Of a DNA stretch of 45,423 nt, positions 1,976 to 32,997 are shown in pieces (the first letter of the stretch is position 1; the number at the start of each line of letters is the position of its first letter). The notes beneath the pieces were generated by a model that had not been told where the DNA came from, made no database searches, and worked only from the letters and a program-made list of their open reading frames with translations. Location: IMG/VR virus record IMGVR_UViG_2563366980_000004; one strand, 5' to 3'. This stretch comes from a virus. Its lineage: Duplodnaviria; Heunggongvirae; Uroviricota; Caudoviricetes. A program made the position numbers and the translations under genes.

Positions 1976-2971
1976 TCACTTTTGTTTTAGCTTTATAATT
2001 TCTGATATCATAGTTGTTAGCTTTGAATCGGAAAGATTCTGCAGTCTATCTTTCTCAATAGAAACTGTAGTTTGTCCCTTTTCTAATATGAAATTTCTTT
2101 CTGTTTTCATTAAAAGCATTGCCAACTCTTTTATCATGTCTTCGTTCTTGAATTCTTGAGCATATTTTAGAGACATGACTTTCATCTCAATATTTGTGAT
2201 TTCATTCTGAAAATATTTGATTTCGTCAAACCCATTTTTATAGAGGCGTAGAAAAAAATAAGCAAACAATTCAACGACTATTACAAATGATAATTTAGGA
2301 AGGTGATGAATAAAAAATCCCACCCCATCCACAATGTCTGGCGCGCTGTAAAGAAAGTAAGCAAGAGATAATATCCCTGTCAACGCAATTATTGTTCCGA
2401 TTGCAAGGTTAAGCCCACCTCGTCGATTGAGTCTGTCTATTTCAGACTCTAATCTTAGAACCATATCAGTATGGAGTTTATGTAAGCTGTAGCTCTTCTT
2501 AAAATCAGATATATCGCTTTTTAGGCTGTTATCTGCCAGAAGTATTGTGTTTCCAATTATTCTCTTTTTTGCATCGGATATTAACTTCTCCCTTTCACTC
2601 TCTGTTATTTCAATGGAAACTCCGGAAGATGTTCTATTTTCAATTTCGCTCAATTTTTTATTTAGCTTAACTATTTCTTTGTGAAAAATATATCTCGTGT
2701 TTTCAATATCTCTACCACCAATTCCTTTGTTTAAATAAGAAGTCATTATTGCGACAAAAGAACCAACAAAAACTAGGGCAGTTGCTGTAAATAAAATAAA
2801 CTCTTTCTTCTCGTTTATTAAATTTACTATTGATGATGATTCCAGTTGAATGTCTGAAAGCGAAGTTTTAAGCACAAAATTCATCACAGGTGAAACCATG
2901 ATTATGGCAACAACTATAATAAATCCATATTTTTTTATAATGTAAATAAGAAGGCCAAATAAATCTTTCAT
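1976..2971 (-). CDS. Hypothetical integral membrane protein with four predicted TM helices and coiled-coil segments (AT-rich moron)
   Basis: 338-aa ORF (TTG at 2992; first ATG at 2971); hydrophobic segments at roughly residues 15-37, 66-87, 195-217 and 232-250 separated by K/E-rich heptad-like regions; markedly AT-rich relative to flanking phage genes; no family recognised. Confidence 0.7.
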   Translation of the reverse strand: MKDLFGLLIYIIKKYGFIIVVAIIMVSPVMNFVLKTSLSDIQLESSSIVNLINEKKEFILFTATALVFVGSFVAIMTSYLNKGIGGRDIENTRYIFHKEIVKLNKKLSEIENRTSSGVSIEITESEREKLISDAKKRIIGNTILLADNSLKSDISDFKKSYSLHKLHTDMVLRLESEIDRLNRRGGLNLAIGTIIALTGILSLAYFLYSAPDIVDGVGFFIHHLPKLSFVIVVELFAYFFLRLYKNGFDEIKYFQNEITNIEMKVMSLKYAQEFKNEDMIKELAMLLMKTERNFILEKGQTTVSIEKDRLQNLSDSKLTTMISEIIKLKQK

Positions 2972-3344
2972 TTTATCTTTTACCTGAAACAAATTTTTAT
3001 TAAAGTAACTTAAAAAATGATTGATTGCAAGATTTACTATTGCTGTTCATTTTAAATTACTATACCCCCCTATGCATACATATAATCCCATAGGGGAGAA
3101 GTTTATTAGTTAGTTAAGTTGAAGGCTATACCTACAATCTAATTCCCCTCCAACCTAACATGCACAAGCGTCAACCTATCGGTAGTGATAATTTTATGAG
3201 GATACGTATAAACAAGATTCTGAGTTGCTCCTATTCATTAAGACAATACATTTTGTAACTTCTGCTTTTGGCTCAGGGTGGGGTGTGAGATTAGGTTTGG
3301 CTCTGTGCCATAGATGTGTCAGTTCACATCTGAGCTAATACACA

Positions 3345-6959: not shown

Positions 6960-7322
6960 TTAACGACCAGCTGCGCGGAGTTTTCCGTCAGGTTCACCGG
7001 CAAGAGTCAGTAATTGTCCCTGGTCTTCCTGCAGAATAGTCAGGCGACCACCGCGATTGACATACATCGGCGTTTCGGTGGTGTCTTCTTCGGAAATTTT
7101 CCCGCGGTTAGTTGGGCGAACATATGAGAGTTTGTGTTTGATTTTCACACGGTTCTCATCAAACGGTTCGATTTCCAGATTGAGTGAGACCTTCCCTTTG
7201 GTTTTCGTGTTCATCACACCGGAAGCGACTTCACTTAGAACTGCGCCGATTTTTGTTTCAAATACGCCGCCGTCCAGCTCCCCGATAAATGCCTGCACAT
7301 CAGTACTGCGTTCACTAGCCAT
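6960..7322 (-). CDS. Hypothetical early-left phage protein (YfdP-like)
   Basis: Start taken at internal MASERSTD (ATG 7322); the upstream in-frame extension to 7508 looks non-coding (C/H/R-rich and overlaps a 10-bp inverted repeat). Confidence 0.6.
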   Translation of the reverse strand: MASERSTDVQAFIGELDGGVFETKIGAVLSEVASGVMNTKTKGKVSLNLEIEPFDENRVKIKHKLSYVRPTNRGKISEEDTTETPMYVNRGGRLTILQEDQGQLLTLAGEPDGKLRAAGR

Positions 7323-7950
7323 TTTGCTGCTCCTCATCATATCGACCCTGCAATGTCGGTTAGTTTCTCCACAAAACAGAGAAGAACACCTGCGGTGGTA
7401 GCCGCCCGGATGGATTGGGTTATGAGCCCGTCGTCCGATGATGTTCTTCTCTGTTTTGTAAAAAGAGCGGTACCAGCCGGAAGCAAGTGTACAAACTGGT
7501 ACCGCCAAAGCAGTGGCTGTTGTGGTGACCGGTGCTGATCTCCGGCTTGCGGTTATTTCAGACTCTCACGGGCATTTAATTGCCCCGCCGAACAGCTCTT
7601 TTCCGCAATAGCTGCAATGTCTTTCGCGCATCAGCCTGCGCATTCACCACAACGCTGAGAGCACTTAGCCAGTTACGGCACCACACTTTGTCGCGGTTCC
7701 ATAAATGCCCTCATCGTTGCACCCTGGTCTCTTCCCAGGCGTCAAACCGAATCGCCACGCTGGTTAGGCGTCTTATCAGCATCATCATTGACTTGCACAT
7801 TCCGGCTACCTGGTTTGTTTGCCCGAGCAAGGAGTGGATTGTCCCCTTTAACGTCCCCAGACCGCTAACGACGCATGTGCCATACGCCGTGTTACAACCA
7901 AATTTTGTTAGTACCTTGTTTGTTTGTCTGGAAAGAAAGATAAAATGAAG

Positions 7951-7989
7951 TTGCGCATTATGCAAGTGTTTTTGTTGCGAGATATGCAA
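7951..7989. promoter_or_regulatory. Candidate OL: two 15-bp TTGC-N7-GCAA palindromic operator sites
   Basis: TTGCGCATTATGCAA (7951-7965) and TTGCGAGATATGCAA (7975-7989) have the same half-site pattern as the site in the cI-cro intergenic region; positioned just beyond the cI terminator, where lambda-like pL/OL would be. Confidence 0.45.
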
Positions 7990-8000
7990 TTTAATGGGTA

Positions 8001-8025
8001 ATGAAAAGCCACCTTCGGGTGGCTA
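8001..8025 (-). terminator. Intrinsic terminator downstream of cI
   Basis: GCCACC-UUCG-GGUGGC tetraloop hairpin followed on the minus strand by TTTTCATT, about 20 nt after the cI stop. Confidence 0.5.
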
Positions 8026-8044
8026 ATTGATGAGGAGGTAAGGG

Positions 8045-8737
8045 TTAATTGTGTCGCTTAAGGGTTTGTGACTGGCTGATTAAGACCTTTCCAAAGACCA
8101 TAAACCGGTGTTCATTTTCGCTGGTAATTCCCCATTCACGGTAAATCTGGTTATCAGAAATCACCAGTAGTTTGTCAGGTATCATTTGCAGTCGTTTGAC
8201 ATAAATTTTATCATCAAAACCAAATACATAGATACCATCTCCATCAAACTGATTGATACTGACATCAACGAAGATGAGATCTCCTGGCTCAATGGTTGGA
8301 CACATACTGTCCCCACGAACGTTGATAACTTTAATGTGATTGGCTGGCCGTCCGCCAAACATCGATACAGCATTATCAGTTCTGTATTCAATGGCATGAA
8401 TCACATCAATGACATCACCGCCCTGGATAAGGCCATTTCCCGCACTGGCACTGACATCCAGCATTTCAATACGGAATACATCCTTCACCTGCGCAACATC
8501 CTCACTAATACTGTTTTTACATACAGTATTACTTTTGAAGTCTGAGGTAAAGAGATCAGCAATATCAACACCTAAGCTCCTGGCAATATTACTCAGGGCT
8601 TGTTCAGTGAATTGTTTCTGCTTACCTGTTTCCAGGCGTGAGATATTCGCCGCATCCACTCCTATTGCTTCAGCGAGATCGGCGATTTTCATGTTCTTCG
8701 CCTGGCGAAGTTGTCTGACTCGGTTTCCTATGTTCAT
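8045..8737 (-). CDS. cI: CI-type prophage repressor (HTH_XRE + S24 LexA-like peptidase domain)
   Basis: 230 aa; N-terminal HTH (LRQAKNMKIADLAEAIGVDAANISRLETGK) and C-terminal S24 signature (RGDSMCPTIEPGDLIFVD...YVKRL); divergent from the cro-like gene. Confidence 0.9.
   Translation of the reverse strand: MNIGNRVRQLRQAKNMKIADLAEAIGVDAANISRLETGKQKQFTEQALSNIARSLGVDIADLFTSDFKSNTVCKNSISEDVAQVKDVFRIEMLDVSASAGNGLIQGGDVIDVIHAIEYRTDNAVSMFGGRPANHIKVINVRGDSMCPTIEPGDLIFVDVSINQFDGDGIYVFGFDDKIYVKRLQMIPDKLLVISDNQIYREWGITSENEHRFMVFGKVLISQSQTLKRHN
8509..8528. promoter_or_regulatory. Consensus-like SOS (LexA) box inside the cI coding sequence
   Basis: TACTGTTTTTACATACAGTA matches CTGT-N8-ACAG with TA flanks; in the HTH-peptidase linker region of cI. 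Confidence 0.35.
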
Positions 8738-8834
8738 GCGTTTATTACATTTCTTTATTGCGCGTTAAGCAAATCAACTTGCGCAAAATATTTGCGTGAA
8801 ATAATATGCTCATCACGCAATATGTGGAGGTCAT
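8738..8834. promoter_or_regulatory. OR/pRM-pR divergent promoter-operator region between cI and cro
   Basis: 97-bp AT-rich spacer containing TTGCGCGTTAAGCAA (TTGC-N7-GCAA) and the palindrome CGCAAAATATTTGCG; GGAGG RBS before the cro ATG. Confidence 0.6.
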
Positions 8835-9095
8835 ATGCAATCACCATTACGGAATGTGCGTAAGGCGCACGGATTTACTTTGCAGCATGTTGCTGCTGGC
8901 GTTCAGGTCAATCCAGCGACGCTGAGTCGTATTGAAAGACTGGAACAAATTCCATCTATCGATCTTGCAGAACGTCTGGCCAATTTTTTTAAGGGTGAAA
9001 TCAGCGAAATGCAGATTCTTTATCCGGCACGTTTTCAATCTAGCCAAAACCAGAATGGGTTTAAACCACAGGAACAGGAGGTAAGCCGTGGGTAA
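8835..9095 (+). CDS. cro: Cro-like HTH_XRE transcriptional regulator
   Basis: 86 aa; HTH (GFTLQHVAAGVQVNPATLSRIER); first gene of the rightward operon. Confidence 0.8.
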   Translation: MQSPLRNVRKAHGFTLQHVAAGVQVNPATLSRIERLEQIPSIDLAERLANFFKGEISEMQILYPARFQSSQNQNGFKPQEQEVSRG

Positions 9096-9639
9096 TCATC
9101 ACTGGAAAGTGGAAAAACAGCCTGAGTGGTACGTGAAAGCTGTCAGAAAAACTATCGCGGCGTTGCCGGGGGGTTACGCTGAAGCTGCTGAGTGGCTGGA
9201 TGTAACAGAGAACGCTTTATTCAACCGCCTTCGTGCAGATGGCGATCAGATTTTCCCGCTGGGATGGGCAATGATTTTACAGCGTGCTGCTGGCACTCAC
9301 TACATTGCGGATGCTGTCGCACAGTCTGCTGGTGGGGTGTTTGTATCGCTTCCTGAAATTGAGGAAGTAGAGAACGCAGATATAAACCAGCGCCTGCTGG
9401 AAGTCATCGAACAGATCGGGAGTTACTCAAAGCAGATTCGTTCGGCAATCGAAGATGGGGTAGTGGAGCCACACGAGCAGACAGCAATTAATGATGAATT
9501 GTATCTGTCAATTTCGAAGCTCCAGGAGCATGCGGCACTGGTCTACAAAATTTTCTGCGCTCCAGAAAAGAGTGACGCCCGCGAGTGTGCAGCTCCGGGC
9601 GTCGTGGCGTTTTGTGTCTGTGGAGAAACTAACGCATGA
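9088..9639 (+). CDS. CII-like / YdaT-like early regulatory protein
   Basis: 183 aa; GTG start with AGGAGG RBS; position after cro; weak resemblance to CII/YdaT-family proteins (functional call tentative). Confidence 0.6.
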   Translation: MGNHHWKVEKQPEWYVKAVRKTIAALPGGYAEAAEWLDVTENALFNRLRADGDQIFPLGWAMILQRAAGTHYIADAVAQSAGGVFVSLPEIEEVENADINQRLLEVIEQIGSYSKQIRSAIEDGVVEPHEQTAINDELYLSISKLQEHAALVYKIFCAPEKSDARECAAPGVVAFCVCGETNA

Positions 9640-10787
9640 ACAGTTTAACGGCAAATAACCGTTTGTCGCAACAGCTGGTGGTCAGTGTCGCTGCACACCT
9701 GTTGTTACGGCATGAATGCAGATTACCAAATCACCTGGCTGTAAGTAACCACAGAGAACTTTACCTGACTGTGGGGGGCGAGTTGTGCAGGAACTTAACC
9801 GCTGGTTTCGTGACGGAAGAGGACTTTATGTTCATGTTATTCGTTGGGAGCCAGAAACACAGCGCGTTATCTATCTTCGCAAAGACTACCCGCATGAGTG
9901 CTTTAGTCCTTTGTGGAAATTCAGGCGTGATTTTGTTGAGTGTGAAGGACCACCAGCACATTGATTCTGCCATTCCGGGACGTTACACTGTTCAGGCACC
10001 TTATAAAGCGGGTGCCGGGCGTGGAAACCCGGAATTCACCAAAGCGCACAACCGCGCTCTTGCGGTTTTTTTGTGTCATGAGCAGCATTACGCCCAAATT
10101 ATGGTGGGGCGTGCAGGGCCAACTTCGGTTGGGCCGGGTTCTTTGGTGACCGGTATTTCCACCCCTGTACGTCTCACCACCAATAAGGTCGTGGAAAGCC
10201 TTGGTGGTGAGTTATTAAAAATCACCAAAGAGGCTGCCATCATGGCTACGATCCCAACCCTCACTCAACCTGAAATTGCCATCGTTGATGGTCAGGCTGT
10301 TACTTCATCCCTGGCTGTTGCCAACTTCTTCTCCAAACGTCATGACGATGTACTGAAAAAGATCCGCACGCTTGAATGTTCCGCATCATTCACTGCCCGC
10401 AATTTTTCGGTGAGTGATTACACCGATTGCACAGGCCGCAAACTACCTTGCTATCAAATAACCCGCGACGGCTTTGCGTTTCTTGCTATGGGTTTCACGG
10501 GTAAACGTGCTGCCCAGTTCAAAGAGGCATACATCAATGCCTTTAACCAGATGGAGAAACAGCTTTCAAAGCCCGCTGTACCGAGCGACGTTGCACATAA
10601 CGCCAGCGTTCTCTGTTCCTACATTTCATCAATTCATCAGGTCTGGCTGCAGCAGCTTTATCCTATGTTGGCAAAAGCCGAATCTCCGCTGGCTGTTAGC
10701 TTATATGACTATATTAATGATGCTTCGGCGCTGGCCTGCCTCATAAATTTGTCGCTGAACCCTTCAGAGGTAAGGGGGCGCAAATGA
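9636..10787 (+). CDS. Rha-family phage regulatory protein (Rha domain from ATG 10242; status of the upstream 200 codons uncertain)
   Basis: C-terminal 182 aa (MATIPTLTQPEIAIVDGQAVTSSLAVANFFSKRHDDVLKKIR...) matches the Rha domain, with an AAGAGG RBS before 10242; the same frame is stop-free back to an ATGA overlap with the upstream gene but has odd composition and an internal terminator-like hairpin. Confidence 0.5.
   Translation: MNSLTANNRLSQQLVVSVAAHLLLRHECRLPNHLAVSNHRELYLTVGGELCRNLTAGFVTEEDFMFMLFVGSQKHSALSIFAKTTRMSALVLCGNSGVILLSVKDHQHIDSAIPGRYTVQAPYKAGAGRGNPEFTKAHNRALAVFLCHEQHYAQIMVGRAGPTSVGPGSLVTGISTPVRLTTNKVVESLGGELLKITKEAAIMATIPTLTQPEIAIVDGQAVTSSLAVANFFSKRHDDVLKKIRTLECSASFTARNFSVSDYTDCTGRKLPCYQITRDGFAFLAMGFTGKRAAQFKEAYINAFNQMEKQLSKPAVPSDVAHNASVLCSYISSIHQVWLQQLYPMLAKAESPLAVSLYDYINDASALACLINLSLNPSEVRGRK
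10050..10072 (+). terminator. Intrinsic terminator-like hairpin plus T-run (tR1-like)
   Basis: ACCGC-GCTCTT-GCGGT followed by TTTTTTT. Confidence 0.45.
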
Positions 10788-32600: not shown

Positions 32601-32668
32601 AAGCGGCAGCGGACTTTATGCAACAGCAGGCCCGTGATGGTGGTCGGTTAAGTGGAGCATATCGGTAA
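29612..32668 (+). CDS. H: Tail tape measure protein
   Basis: 1018 aa; long coiled-coil-rich protein; GGAGGTG RBS before ATG 29612. Confidence 0.9.
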   Translation: MDQIANLVIDLGIDAAEFKNEIPRIKNLLNGAASDAERSSARMQRFMERQTQAARQTTQAASSAATAASVHAQTVEKNAQAHERMAREVEKTRQRMEALSQKMREEQAQAMALAEAQDKAAAAFYRQIDSVKQASAGLQELQRIQQQIRQARNSGGIGQQDYLALISEVTAKTRVLTQAEEEATRQKVAFIRQLKEQATRQNLSSSELLRAKAAQLGVSSAAEVYIRKMEQAGKATHSLGLKSAAARQEIGVLIGELARGNLGALRGSGITLANRAGWIDTLMSPKGMMLGGVIGGIAAAVYGLGKAWYDGQKEGEEFNRQLSLTGHYAGVTAGQLWTLSRAISGNGITQHAAAGALAQVVGSGAFRGNDIGMVARAAAQMERSVGQSVSDTISQFKRLKDDPVNAAKALDNELHFLAATQLEQIRVLGEQGRSSDAARIAMSALAEETGRRTADIDNNLNALGSTLKYLSDLWSRFWDAAMNIGREDSLDEQISALQEKVSRAKRLPWTASSSQVEYDQQRLNELQEKKRQKDLQDAKEQAERNYQEQQKRRNAENAALNRMNETEAARHQREIARINAMQYADQTVRDAAIQRENERYEKALASGKKKTRETRNDEATRLLLQYSQQQAQVEGQIAAARQSAGIATERMTEAHKQLLALQQRISDLDGKKLTEDEKSVLARKDELIQALTLLDVKQQELQKQTALNELKKKTIQLTSQLAEEERAQRQQHNLDIATVGMGDQQRQRYQVQLSLRQKYQQQLEQLRRDSEQKGTYNTDDYRKAEQALTESLNRQLNENRRYWQQLEIAQGNWKNGVLRALQNVTENADNTAWTVEQLFTSAFSSMSDWLATFCTTGKLNFKSFTSSVLSDMSRIMAQIALMKAVKGIASALPFDFVANADGGVYQSADLSRYSGTVVNRPTFFAFAKGAGVMGEAGPEAILPLRRGADGKLGVVADIGGSGMAMFAPQYNIEINNDGTNGQIGPAALKVVYDLGKKAAADFMQQQARDGGRLSGAYR

Positions 32669-32997
32669 TGGAGACGTTTCACTGGAAAGTGCGCCCGGAT
32701 ATGAATGTGGTATCAGAGCCGAAAGTGGTGACAGTGAAGCTGGGCGATGGTTATGAACAGCGTCGTGCGGCGGGACTGAATAACCAGTTGTCGACTTACA
32801 GCGTGACGATACGTGTTCGTAAATGTGAACACCCATCTTTAAAAGCCTTTCTGGAACGGCACGGTGGCGTCCGCGCATTTCAGTGGACGCCACCTTATGA
32901 CTGGAAACCGATTAGGGTGGTTTGTCGTAAATGGTCGGCAAGCGTGGGGGCGCTGTGGGTAACCATAACGGCAGATTTTGAACAGGTCGTGGCATAG
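32668..32997 (+). CDS. M: Minor tail protein M
   Basis: 109 aa, same length and position as lambda gpM. Confidence 0.85.
   Translation: METFHWKVRPDMNVVSEPKVVTVKLGDGYEQRRAAGLNNQLSTYSVTIRVRKCEHPSLKAFLERHGGVRAFQWTPPYDWKPIRVVCRKWSASVGALWVTITADFEQVVA

Follow-up and report, generated by a model that had tools for sequence, protein, structure and literature searches.

A widespread pseudoknotted RNA in the pL leader of N-less lambdoid phages and its possible role in transcriptional read-through

The put RNAs act by binding the zinc-binding domain of the beta-prime subunit of RNA polymerase, and they suppress termination. In HK022, put lies just downstream of pL in a phage that lacks N (PMC9378689), as it does by annotation in HK639, and a put-like mechanism has been suspected in another phage without N, whose early-left genes are of the same yfdPQR type as those considered here (PMC12315714). 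Expression of the early operon in N-less lambdoid phages is known only for this HK022-type RNA, and many prophages of E. coli, Shigella, Salmonella and Klebsiella, including Stx2 phages, have neither N nor put. We have analyzed IMG/VR record IMGVR_UViG_2563366980_000004 (45,423 nucleotides; hereafter the window, to which coordinates refer unless another sequence is named), a lambdoid temperate phage, and specifically the interval immediately left of cI (7323–8044), which is 98% identical to mEp460 and several E. coli prophage-derived phages. The region is best explained as the ∼600-nt untranslated leader that begins the pL transcript of a lambdoid, mEp460-type phage without N, and its 5′ part encodes a large pseudoknotted RNA that we refer to as D1.

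The 603-nt leader folds better than its shuffles (z −3.5). On the minus strand it is organized as D1, a small hairpin within a closed linker, a terminator-like hairpin (T1), a long helix with a three-way junction (H2), a conserved single-stranded segment, a further hairpin (H3), and the Shine-Dalgarno sequence of the first early-left gene. The initial annotation had suggested a structured RNA as one possible occupant of the leader, and this is strongly supported, although the RNA is multi-domain and larger than one hairpin. That annotation had overlooked a 25-nt repeat (7371–7395 and 7435–7459) and a 10-bp complement (7519–7528 and 7644–7653), as well as the fact that the 5′ 250 nt of the leader form a widely conserved structured RNA.

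D1 occupies positions 7650–7903 of the minus strand, with a core at 7898–7710, and is ∼190–255 nt long. Helix P1 (7869–7889) reads CGGCGUAUG-GCA-CAUGCGUCG, and an invariant junction, GGUAGCCGGAAUGUGCAAG, lies at 7792–7810. The segment 7745–7771 holds both P4 (7771–7768 paired with 7760–7757) and a pseudoknot, in which the loop AACC (7765–7762) pairs with GGUU (7748–7745) here and CACC with GGUG in most members. Helix P5 (7723–7739) is CCUGG-GAAGAGA-CCAGG, and a predicted 3′ extension, P6, would pair 7719–7706 with 7663–7650; all of these features are on the minus strand.

A hand-derived structure comprising P1, P2a/b, a 3-bp closing helix, P4, the pseudoknot and P5 was tested for covariation on an alignment of 55 sequences. 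Cells are paired in 94.5% of cases compared with 85.4% in shuffles, and the covariation score is 0.286 compared with 0.134, a value that none of 500 shuffles reached; sliding the partners gives 0.075 or less. Fifteen pairs change on both sides, one of them in the pseudoknot, where 50 sequences have C-G and five have A-U, the window being of the A-U type. In P1 (helix 1) 97% of cells are paired and pair 14/26 is G-C in 28 sequences and A-U in 27, while three pairs of P4 and four of the five pairs of P5 (helix 7) show changes on both sides. P6 is backed by eye, GAGAGCA/UGCUCUC being replaced by AAGAGCA/UGCUCUU in relatives. We conclude that D1 is a genuine structured RNA, containing a pseudoknot and five helices that covary. 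The D1 covariance model, R1, finds exactly one copy in the window with 144.5 bits (E 6e-40).

These data bear on one account of the leader, that it is merely a long, folded 5′ untranslated region guarding an untranslated transcript from Rho and RNases, with neither a regulatory nor a trans role of its own, its conservation reflecting recent common descent. The good folding of the whole leader is in keeping with this, as is the 97–99% identity of many copies. However, covariation is seen among copies that are just 65–80% identical and come from different phage types, and the invariant junctions, the conserved pseudoknot and an exact copy of a tRNA-fMet anticodon arm further downstream (see below) point to specific functions, so that we regard a purely protective leader as quite improbable.

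BLAST comparison of 7640–7930 shows ∼79% identity to P1, P7, D6 and SJ46 and ∼82% to epsilon15-like phages (phiV10 and others), and D1 homologues are also present in phages of Klebsiella, Salmonella and Enterobacter. In IMG/VR, an exact-motif scan yielded at least 120 loci, which reduce to 105 unique sequences and 44 clusters at 93% identity. Because most D1 sequences were gathered by an exact 17-mer, the invariance of the GGUAGCCGGAAUGUGCAAG junction is partly a matter of ascertainment; among the hits of a loose, independent pattern scan of GTDB, 14 of 120 were true members, all from Enterobacterales, and 12 of those 14 have the junction exactly. Of 5426 complete E. coli genomes, 1833 carry D1, and 554 of its occurrences lie on plasmids; no annotation overlies it in the E. 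coli records other than an adjacent tRNA-Arg and, in rare cases, a hypothetical protein. Rfam 15 contains nothing that corresponds to D1, T1 or H2, none of the 79 phage and 2113 E. coli records has an annotation that describes them, and full-text searches with the invariant D1 sequences found no account of them either.

In at least 26 of the 44 clusters a cI-like gene of the same orientation lies directly upstream of D1, which is at the beginning of the pL transcript, and D1 stays with the leader where the immunity region differs. No partner protein is conserved next to it. A tRNA gene flanks D1 in 10 of the 44 clusters: in phage P1 it sits between trnI and ban, starting 2 nt after tRNA-Ile(CAU), and in the epsilon15-like phages its end coincides with the first base (5′ end) of a tRNA-Arg gene. 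We note that phage P1 (L002, 3200–3290) also has a 14-codon open reading frame (ORF), MPIISDIQHAWVEC, between D1 and ban; its stop codon overlaps the ban start (TAATG), suggesting translational coupling.

Downstream of D1, the linker contains the small hairpin (7626–7641, minus strand; GCGCA-GGCUGA-UGCGC with UGAAU ahead of it), which in relatives has an altered stem and an unchanged hexaloop. The linker is closed by a long-range helix (7519–7653, minus strand) in which GUUGUGGUGA (7653–7644) pairs with UCACCACAAC (7528–7519) over 10 nt with 100% complementarity; seven to eight of these pairs are retained in relatives L086 and L120, as read from their sequences. In epsilon15-like relatives a complete tRNA-Arg gene fills the linker between D1 and T1. 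Closure by either means suggests that D1 and T1 are kept close in space.

T1 lies at 7460–7506 on the minus strand and is followed by CUCUUUUU. Its stem is the perfect 10-bp inverted repeat GCGGTACCAG to which the initial annotation had drawn attention, located at 7467–7476 and 7496–7505, and comparison of relatives identifies the repeat as part of a conserved element. The hairpin has 13 pairs (−21.2 kcal/mol, z −4.0), and is present downstream of D1 in at least 22 of the 44 clusters, lambdoid and epsilon15-like alike. All 30 distinct sequence variants fold, with energies from −10 to −23 kcal/mol, and are then followed by CUUUUUACA; the base of the stem, GGCGGU/ACCGCC, is invariant and the upper stem covaries. 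The terminator scan tool does not call T1 in the window because of its 19-nt loop, although it does call the phiV10 homologue.

The cassette of epsilon15-type relatives has as its last element a strong terminator of canonical form, T2 (GCCCGGUUCGCCGGGC followed by seven U residues), and the T2 U tract abuts, within 1–2 nt, the AAGGUGA-N5-8-AUG of at least eight unrelated cargo genes. These include a Tad2-like (PF11195) gene, a gene for a gp49/gp66-family protein and several unknowns; T2-cargo sites occur in L003 (3482–3525) and in L015, L020, L028, L053, L056, L069, L075, L077, L088, L095, L119, L158 and L204. There is no room for a promoter between T2 and the cargo, which is therefore expressible only by read-through.

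We tentatively propose that the leader is an RNA-based, N-independent control of read-through, analogous but unrelated to put. This role is drawn entirely from the anatomy of the leader and its comparative context. D1 would be a cis-acting antiterminator with the role that N and nut play in lambda and put plays in HK022, and the RNA-only leader would decide whether polymerase from pL passes T1 (T2 in relatives) and enters the early-left genes. T1 and T2, presumed to terminate, would shield the cargo from transcripts without D1, and D1 may suppress termination through a put-like modification of the polymerase or through direct RNA-RNA contact with T1. An RNA-based antitermination element had been among the suggestions of the initial annotation; the location of the leader at the start of the early-left transcript and the conserved terminator-like hairpins downstream agree with it, whereas the lack of any put-family match and of boxA or boxB does not.

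Several observations weigh against this proposal. In the serotype-converting phage SfII (L247, ∼2270–3010) the operators and the start of the leader are as in the window, but D1 is disrupted: it is cut after helix P1 and replaced by a ∼600 bp insert with an opposite-strand ORF, SfII_36, only its last ∼12 nt (the 3′ strand of P6) being kept along with T1/H2. Lys8385Vzw has a T1/H2 leader that starts at pL with D1 absent, and phage P1 conversely has D1 without T1, with no predicted terminator ahead of ban. The mid-operon position of D1 after a tRNA in phage P1, and its placement flush against a tRNA in the epsilon15-like phages, look like those of a processed, free-standing RNA. R1 finds no second D1 copy in the pR operon of the window, unlike the arrangement in HK022, and finds nothing in HK022 or HK639 themselves. 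A put model, R2 (37 put sequences; motif GUCGAACGGCGCGAC..AAACCAUGCGUCGG..GGCGGG..CGGCAAU), likewise finds nothing in the leader or in the phage P1 and phiV10 copies of D1 at E up to 10. Finally, with its 19-nt loop and five U residues only, T1 may be a weak terminator.

The main alternative is that D1, and perhaps H2, are stable trans-acting RNAs cut from the early transcript, by tRNA-processing enzymes where tRNAs flank, and act on a host or defence factor, possibly as decoys for tRNA-targeting nucleases or other RNA-binding proteins; the leader would then be simply a convenient early slot. The tRNA-flush ends of D1 in phage P1 and the epsilon15-like phages, together with the 10 tRNA-flanked clusters, are as expected of such RNAs, as are the mobility of D1, an optional module in phages of three unrelated types that SfII and Lys8385Vzw can do without, the H2 tip with its exact match to the anticodon stem-loop of initiator tRNA, and the Tad2-like anti-defence family among the neighboring cargo. 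There is also a precedent in ROOL and GOLLD, large phage RNAs found beside tRNAs (PMC12286853). A trans-acting RNA nevertheless leaves unexplained the regular presence of T1, with its conserved base and U tract, after D1, the always-closed linker, and the promoterless cargo right behind a strong terminator; there is no conserved partner protein adjoining D1, and a stoichiometric decoy would be a weak strategy against an enzyme. Given that D1 and T1/H2 are separable, that D1 is disrupted in SfII and that its boundaries can be flush with tRNAs, we hold antitermination only tentatively, and consider a trans-acting RNA or decoy only slightly less likely.

The combination of D1 and T1 could also be viewed as a riboswitch-like attenuator, with D1 as an aptamer for a metabolite, ion, tRNA or protein and T1 as the expression platform. 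The size of D1, its pseudoknot and its invariant junction are typical of large aptamers, and a terminator-like hairpin does follow. But the gap between D1 and T1 is 140–190 nt and may hold a whole tRNA gene, which is unlike known riboswitches; no alternative pairing of T1 with the 3′ end of D1 was found, phage P1 has D1 but lacks T1, and there is no match to an Rfam riboswitch. An attenuator of this kind thus appears unlikely.

Two further features of D1 and T1 may be recorded here. A pyrimidine motif (UCCUU, UUCC or CUUCC) resembling an anti-Shine-Dalgarno sequence recurs in two loops of nearly all variants, that of D1 P2 and that of T1; in the window these are CUCCUU at ∼7826–7821 and CUUCC at ∼7482–7478, respectively. 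The T1-loop CUUCC is perfectly complementary to GGAAG of the D1 P5 loop in the window, although a kissing interaction between the P5 and T1 loops has no covariation across the subtypes. Twelve nucleotides ahead of T1 is the sequence CACAACA (7524–7518, minus strand), which is the target consensus of the GcvB R1 seed and is placed much as the seed is in the prophage anti-sRNA AgvB; one 7-mer of this type is expected in 600 nt with a chance of ∼4%, so that its presence could be fortuitous. This pre-T1 segment varies among relatives, being CA-rich here and GU-rich (GCUGUGUGUAGUC) elsewhere.

H2 (7371–7459, minus strand) is built on the 25-nt repeat noted above, the arms of which are 88% complementary. 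Its helix is predicted to have 23 pairs (−45.8 kcal/mol, z −8.1), and most close relatives have the same predicted fold. The tip of one arm, CGGGCUCAUAACCC at 7417–7430, matches the anticodon stem-loop of the E. coli initiator tRNA-fMet (metZ, MG1655) at 14 of 14 nt; it consists of three G-C pairs and the loop CUCAUAA, and is predicted to form a 7-nt loop on a 3-bp stem. This 14-mer has one match in the window against an expectation of 0.01, and is also present in Lys8385Vzw (L246, ∼2590–2610), which has no D1. Close relatives retain UCAUAACCC and epsilon15-type relatives have a CUCAU-containing loop; the full mimic is restricted to the H2 sub-lineage of the window, others keeping a CUCAU or UCAUAA loop only. 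There is no tRNA gene as such in the window, ARAGORN reporting none and the Rfam tRNA model giving no hit. A copy of the tRNA-fMet arm in a phage leader is unusual and suggests a tie to translation initiation or to tRNA-targeting toxins. Enteric VapC toxins reportedly cleave the anticodon stem-loop of initiator tRNA, as described by Winther and Gerdes in 2011, and candidate partners of the H2 tip are VapC-type toxins that cleave this stem-loop, MetRS and the 30S P site. H2 is followed (7343–7370, minus strand) by the conserved single-stranded segment GGAGAAACUAAC (7370–7359) and by H3 (7358–7343; loop UUGCAG). The sequence GGAGAA(A/G)CUAAC shows almost no variation; for the H3 stem, the versions CGAC/GUCG, GGCGG/CCGCC and GCCC/GGGC are seen.

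The leader appears to be noncoding throughout. About 600 bp without a convincing ORF had been described here, and indeed none of the ORFs of 30 aa or more within 7323–7989 has a Pfam or an informative PHROG match, one matching only a PHROG of unknown function. These ORFs overlie covarying RNA helices. In relatives the small-hairpin stem GCGCA/UGCGC is replaced by GCACA/UGUGC or GGCGG/CCGCC, altering the encoded peptide, and because such substitutions preserve pairing rather than codons, a small protein in the leader, another suggestion of the initial annotation, is disfavored. A 13-codon ORF in P6 was rejected in the same way, its substitutions being explained by base pairing and the product having no family match. 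Searches of 7250–8060 against Rfam 15 gave no hit at the gathering threshold and chance-level hits only at E up to 10. We note that the GenBank records of mEp460, phiSTEC1575, cdtI and phiV10 (p04) have hypothetical proteins over D1, T1/H2 or the tRNA-Arg, and that phrog_33599 matches a spurious 49-aa ORF over H2 (7337–7486, minus strand). The hypothetical-protein calls over these phage leaders look like mis-annotated RNA regions.

A hidden N-like small protein or a nut site in the leader is very improbable. One candidate is a 36-aa ORF (7576–7686, minus strand) with an Arg/Lys-rich tail, LRKRAVRRGN, and UGCUCUC, with GU-rich sequence and then a hairpin after it, bears a superficial likeness to boxA-boxC-boxB. 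The ORF, however, has no family match and is not conserved in sequence over the covarying hairpin that it overlaps. The sole boxA-like string, GCTCTCAGCG (7662–7653), leaves the GYTCTTTAANA/CGCTCTTA consensus from position 6 on and is also paired in P6. A C4T/T6C boxA mutant abolished Nus-factor binding at suhB (PMC5725501), and position 6 of GCTCTCAGCG is C, one of the two changes in that mutant. The GGCUGA loop of the hairpin is not of the boxB type, so that a check of the leader for nut sites, as had been recommended, yields neither a boxA consensus nor a boxB-type loop. The RfaH ops element (GGCGGTAGnnTG) was also considered and rejected, the T1 5′ arm GGCGGTACCAGT having three mismatches and the leader no match with two or fewer.

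The first early-left gene (6960–7335 with its Shine-Dalgarno sequence, minus strand; GAGGAG at 7335–7330, ATG at 7322) encodes an acidic, 120-aa protein of phrog_204 (unknown function) that is not N-like, and the first five early-left ORFs comprise phrog_204, DUF2303 (YfdQ-like), a YfbR-like HD phosphatase, DUF551 and unknowns. None of the early-left or leader ORFs matches an antiterminator family in Pfam or PHROG, and between cI and pL there is no rexAB-like cargo, cI being followed after 20 nt by a terminator and then the operators; both absences had been correctly recognized from the sequence. Every D1-carrying lambdoid phage inspected lacks N, including cdtI and Stx2a_WGPS2, and the latter has xis and int several kb further along the same operon.

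The putative pL (7937–7965, minus strand) has a −35 sequence TTGCAT (7965–7960) inside OL1, a 17-nt spacer and a −10 sequence TATCTT (7942–7937), with a predicted transcription start at ∼7928, ∼20 nt ahead of D1. We infer this promoter from direct reading of the sequence, as it scores below the threshold of the promoter scan tool; the same TTGCAT-17-TATCTT layout is present in SfII, and TTGACA-17-TACCTT is found upstream of the phiV10 D1 copy. The two operator-like TTGC-N7-GCAA palindromes reported previously are present at 7951–7989 (OL1, 7951–7965; OL2, 7975–7989), and a third copy is on the pR side at 8758–8772. The window contains five such sequences compared with 1.76 expected, and three of the five are within 850 bp around cI. 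A hairpin terminator had also been placed to the left of cI, and an intrinsic terminator is found there (8007–8024, minus strand), 20 nt past the cI stop codon; it reads AGCCACCCGAAGGTGGCT then TTTCATT, and has a seven-pair stem with five G-C pairs, a tetraloop, the tail TTTCATTACC and a U run. The cI gene itself (8045–8737, minus strand) encodes Peptidase_S24 and HTH domains; cro (8835–9095) and a CP76-type CII gene (9088–9639) are both on the plus strand.

Rfam identifies two known RNAs in the pR operon between cII and a Rha-type gene. One is isrK at 9996–10072 (plus strand, 67 bits), which carries a terminator of its own, and the other is a C4 antisense RNA at 10097–10184 (plus strand, 83.6 bits). 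Together they constitute an RNA switch like those of P1 immI and Gifsy-1 within a lambdoid pR operon. The 383-aa ORF over them (9636–10787) is probably an artefact, with its Phage_pRha match limited to residues 223–308. Its Pfam Phage_ASH match (residues 117–213) overlies the isrK and C4 genes, which suggests that this family may in part model translated RNA genes.

Whatever its mechanism, D1 is a well-supported RNA that goes unannotated in a large number of E. coli genomes. More speculatively, and with some doubt on our part, D1 and T1/H2 may constitute an undescribed class of large phage RNA, spread over lambdoid, P1-like and epsilon15-like phages of the Enterobacterales and about one third of complete E. 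coli genomes, which would join RNA-only terminator resistance, tRNA-fMet mimicry and a portable platform for accessory and anti-defence genes. If the read-through proposal is true, this would be a second RNA solution to early-operon expression without N, structurally unrelated to put. The proposal is directly testable, since mEp460, P1, phiV10 and the Stx phages are tractable in the laboratory. The conserved cassette also flags a slot for variable cargo, such as the Tad2-like gene, and should be useful in finding anti-defence genes.

Comparison with described systems shows partial parallels to each. The AgvB/AsxR genes (EcOnc01-03) of lambdoid prophages similarly have a short variable segment followed by a conserved terminator hairpin, and the T2 end of the relatives, CUCAUUGCUUCC...GCCCGG..CCGGGCAUUUU, resembles the conserved AgvB 3′ region. 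Genes of the AgvB type are 51–60 nt long, lie downstream of pR′ and have their own promoters (PMC4104026); we reject identity with AgvB on account of this location and the different sequence. The thrS operator of E. coli, like H2, is a 5′-leader hairpin that copies the anticodon stem-loop of one tRNA, although no cognate synthetase gene is downstream of H2. ROOL and GOLLD are large folded RNAs of temperate phages, often adjoining tRNA genes and of unknown function (PMC12286853). D1 is likewise large, intricately folded, carried by temperate phages and frequently tRNA-adjacent; it differs in giving no hit with their Rfam models, in being smaller, in its Enterobacterales hosts, and in its fixed leader position ahead of terminators.

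Two further parallels are put and N/nut. As with put in HK022 and HK639, D1 is a cis-encoded RNA just downstream of pL in an N-less lambdoid phage, with terminators after it, and the base of helix P1 in the window, ACGGCG...CAUGCGUCG, shares 15 nt with stem I of the HK022 and HK639 putL. Homology between helix P1 and put, which had been spotted by eye, was rejected, as R1 and R2 give no cross-hits and the shared letters vary freely in the D1 family. R2 has one weak hit elsewhere in the window (32760–32835, plus strand; 12.9 bits, E 0.12), within an ORF of the tail-gene region (32668–32997), that is most likely due to chance. The put RNA is ∼70 nt with two stems, whereas D1 measures 190–255 nt and has a pseudoknot in addition to five or six helices; D1 is also found beside tRNAs in P1-like and epsilon15-like phages, and has no second copy at pR. 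With respect to lambda, the window has no N-like protein, boxA consensus or boxB-type loop, but the leader occupies the same slot as N/nut, between pL/OL and the early-left genes, with xis/int and accessory genes far downstream.

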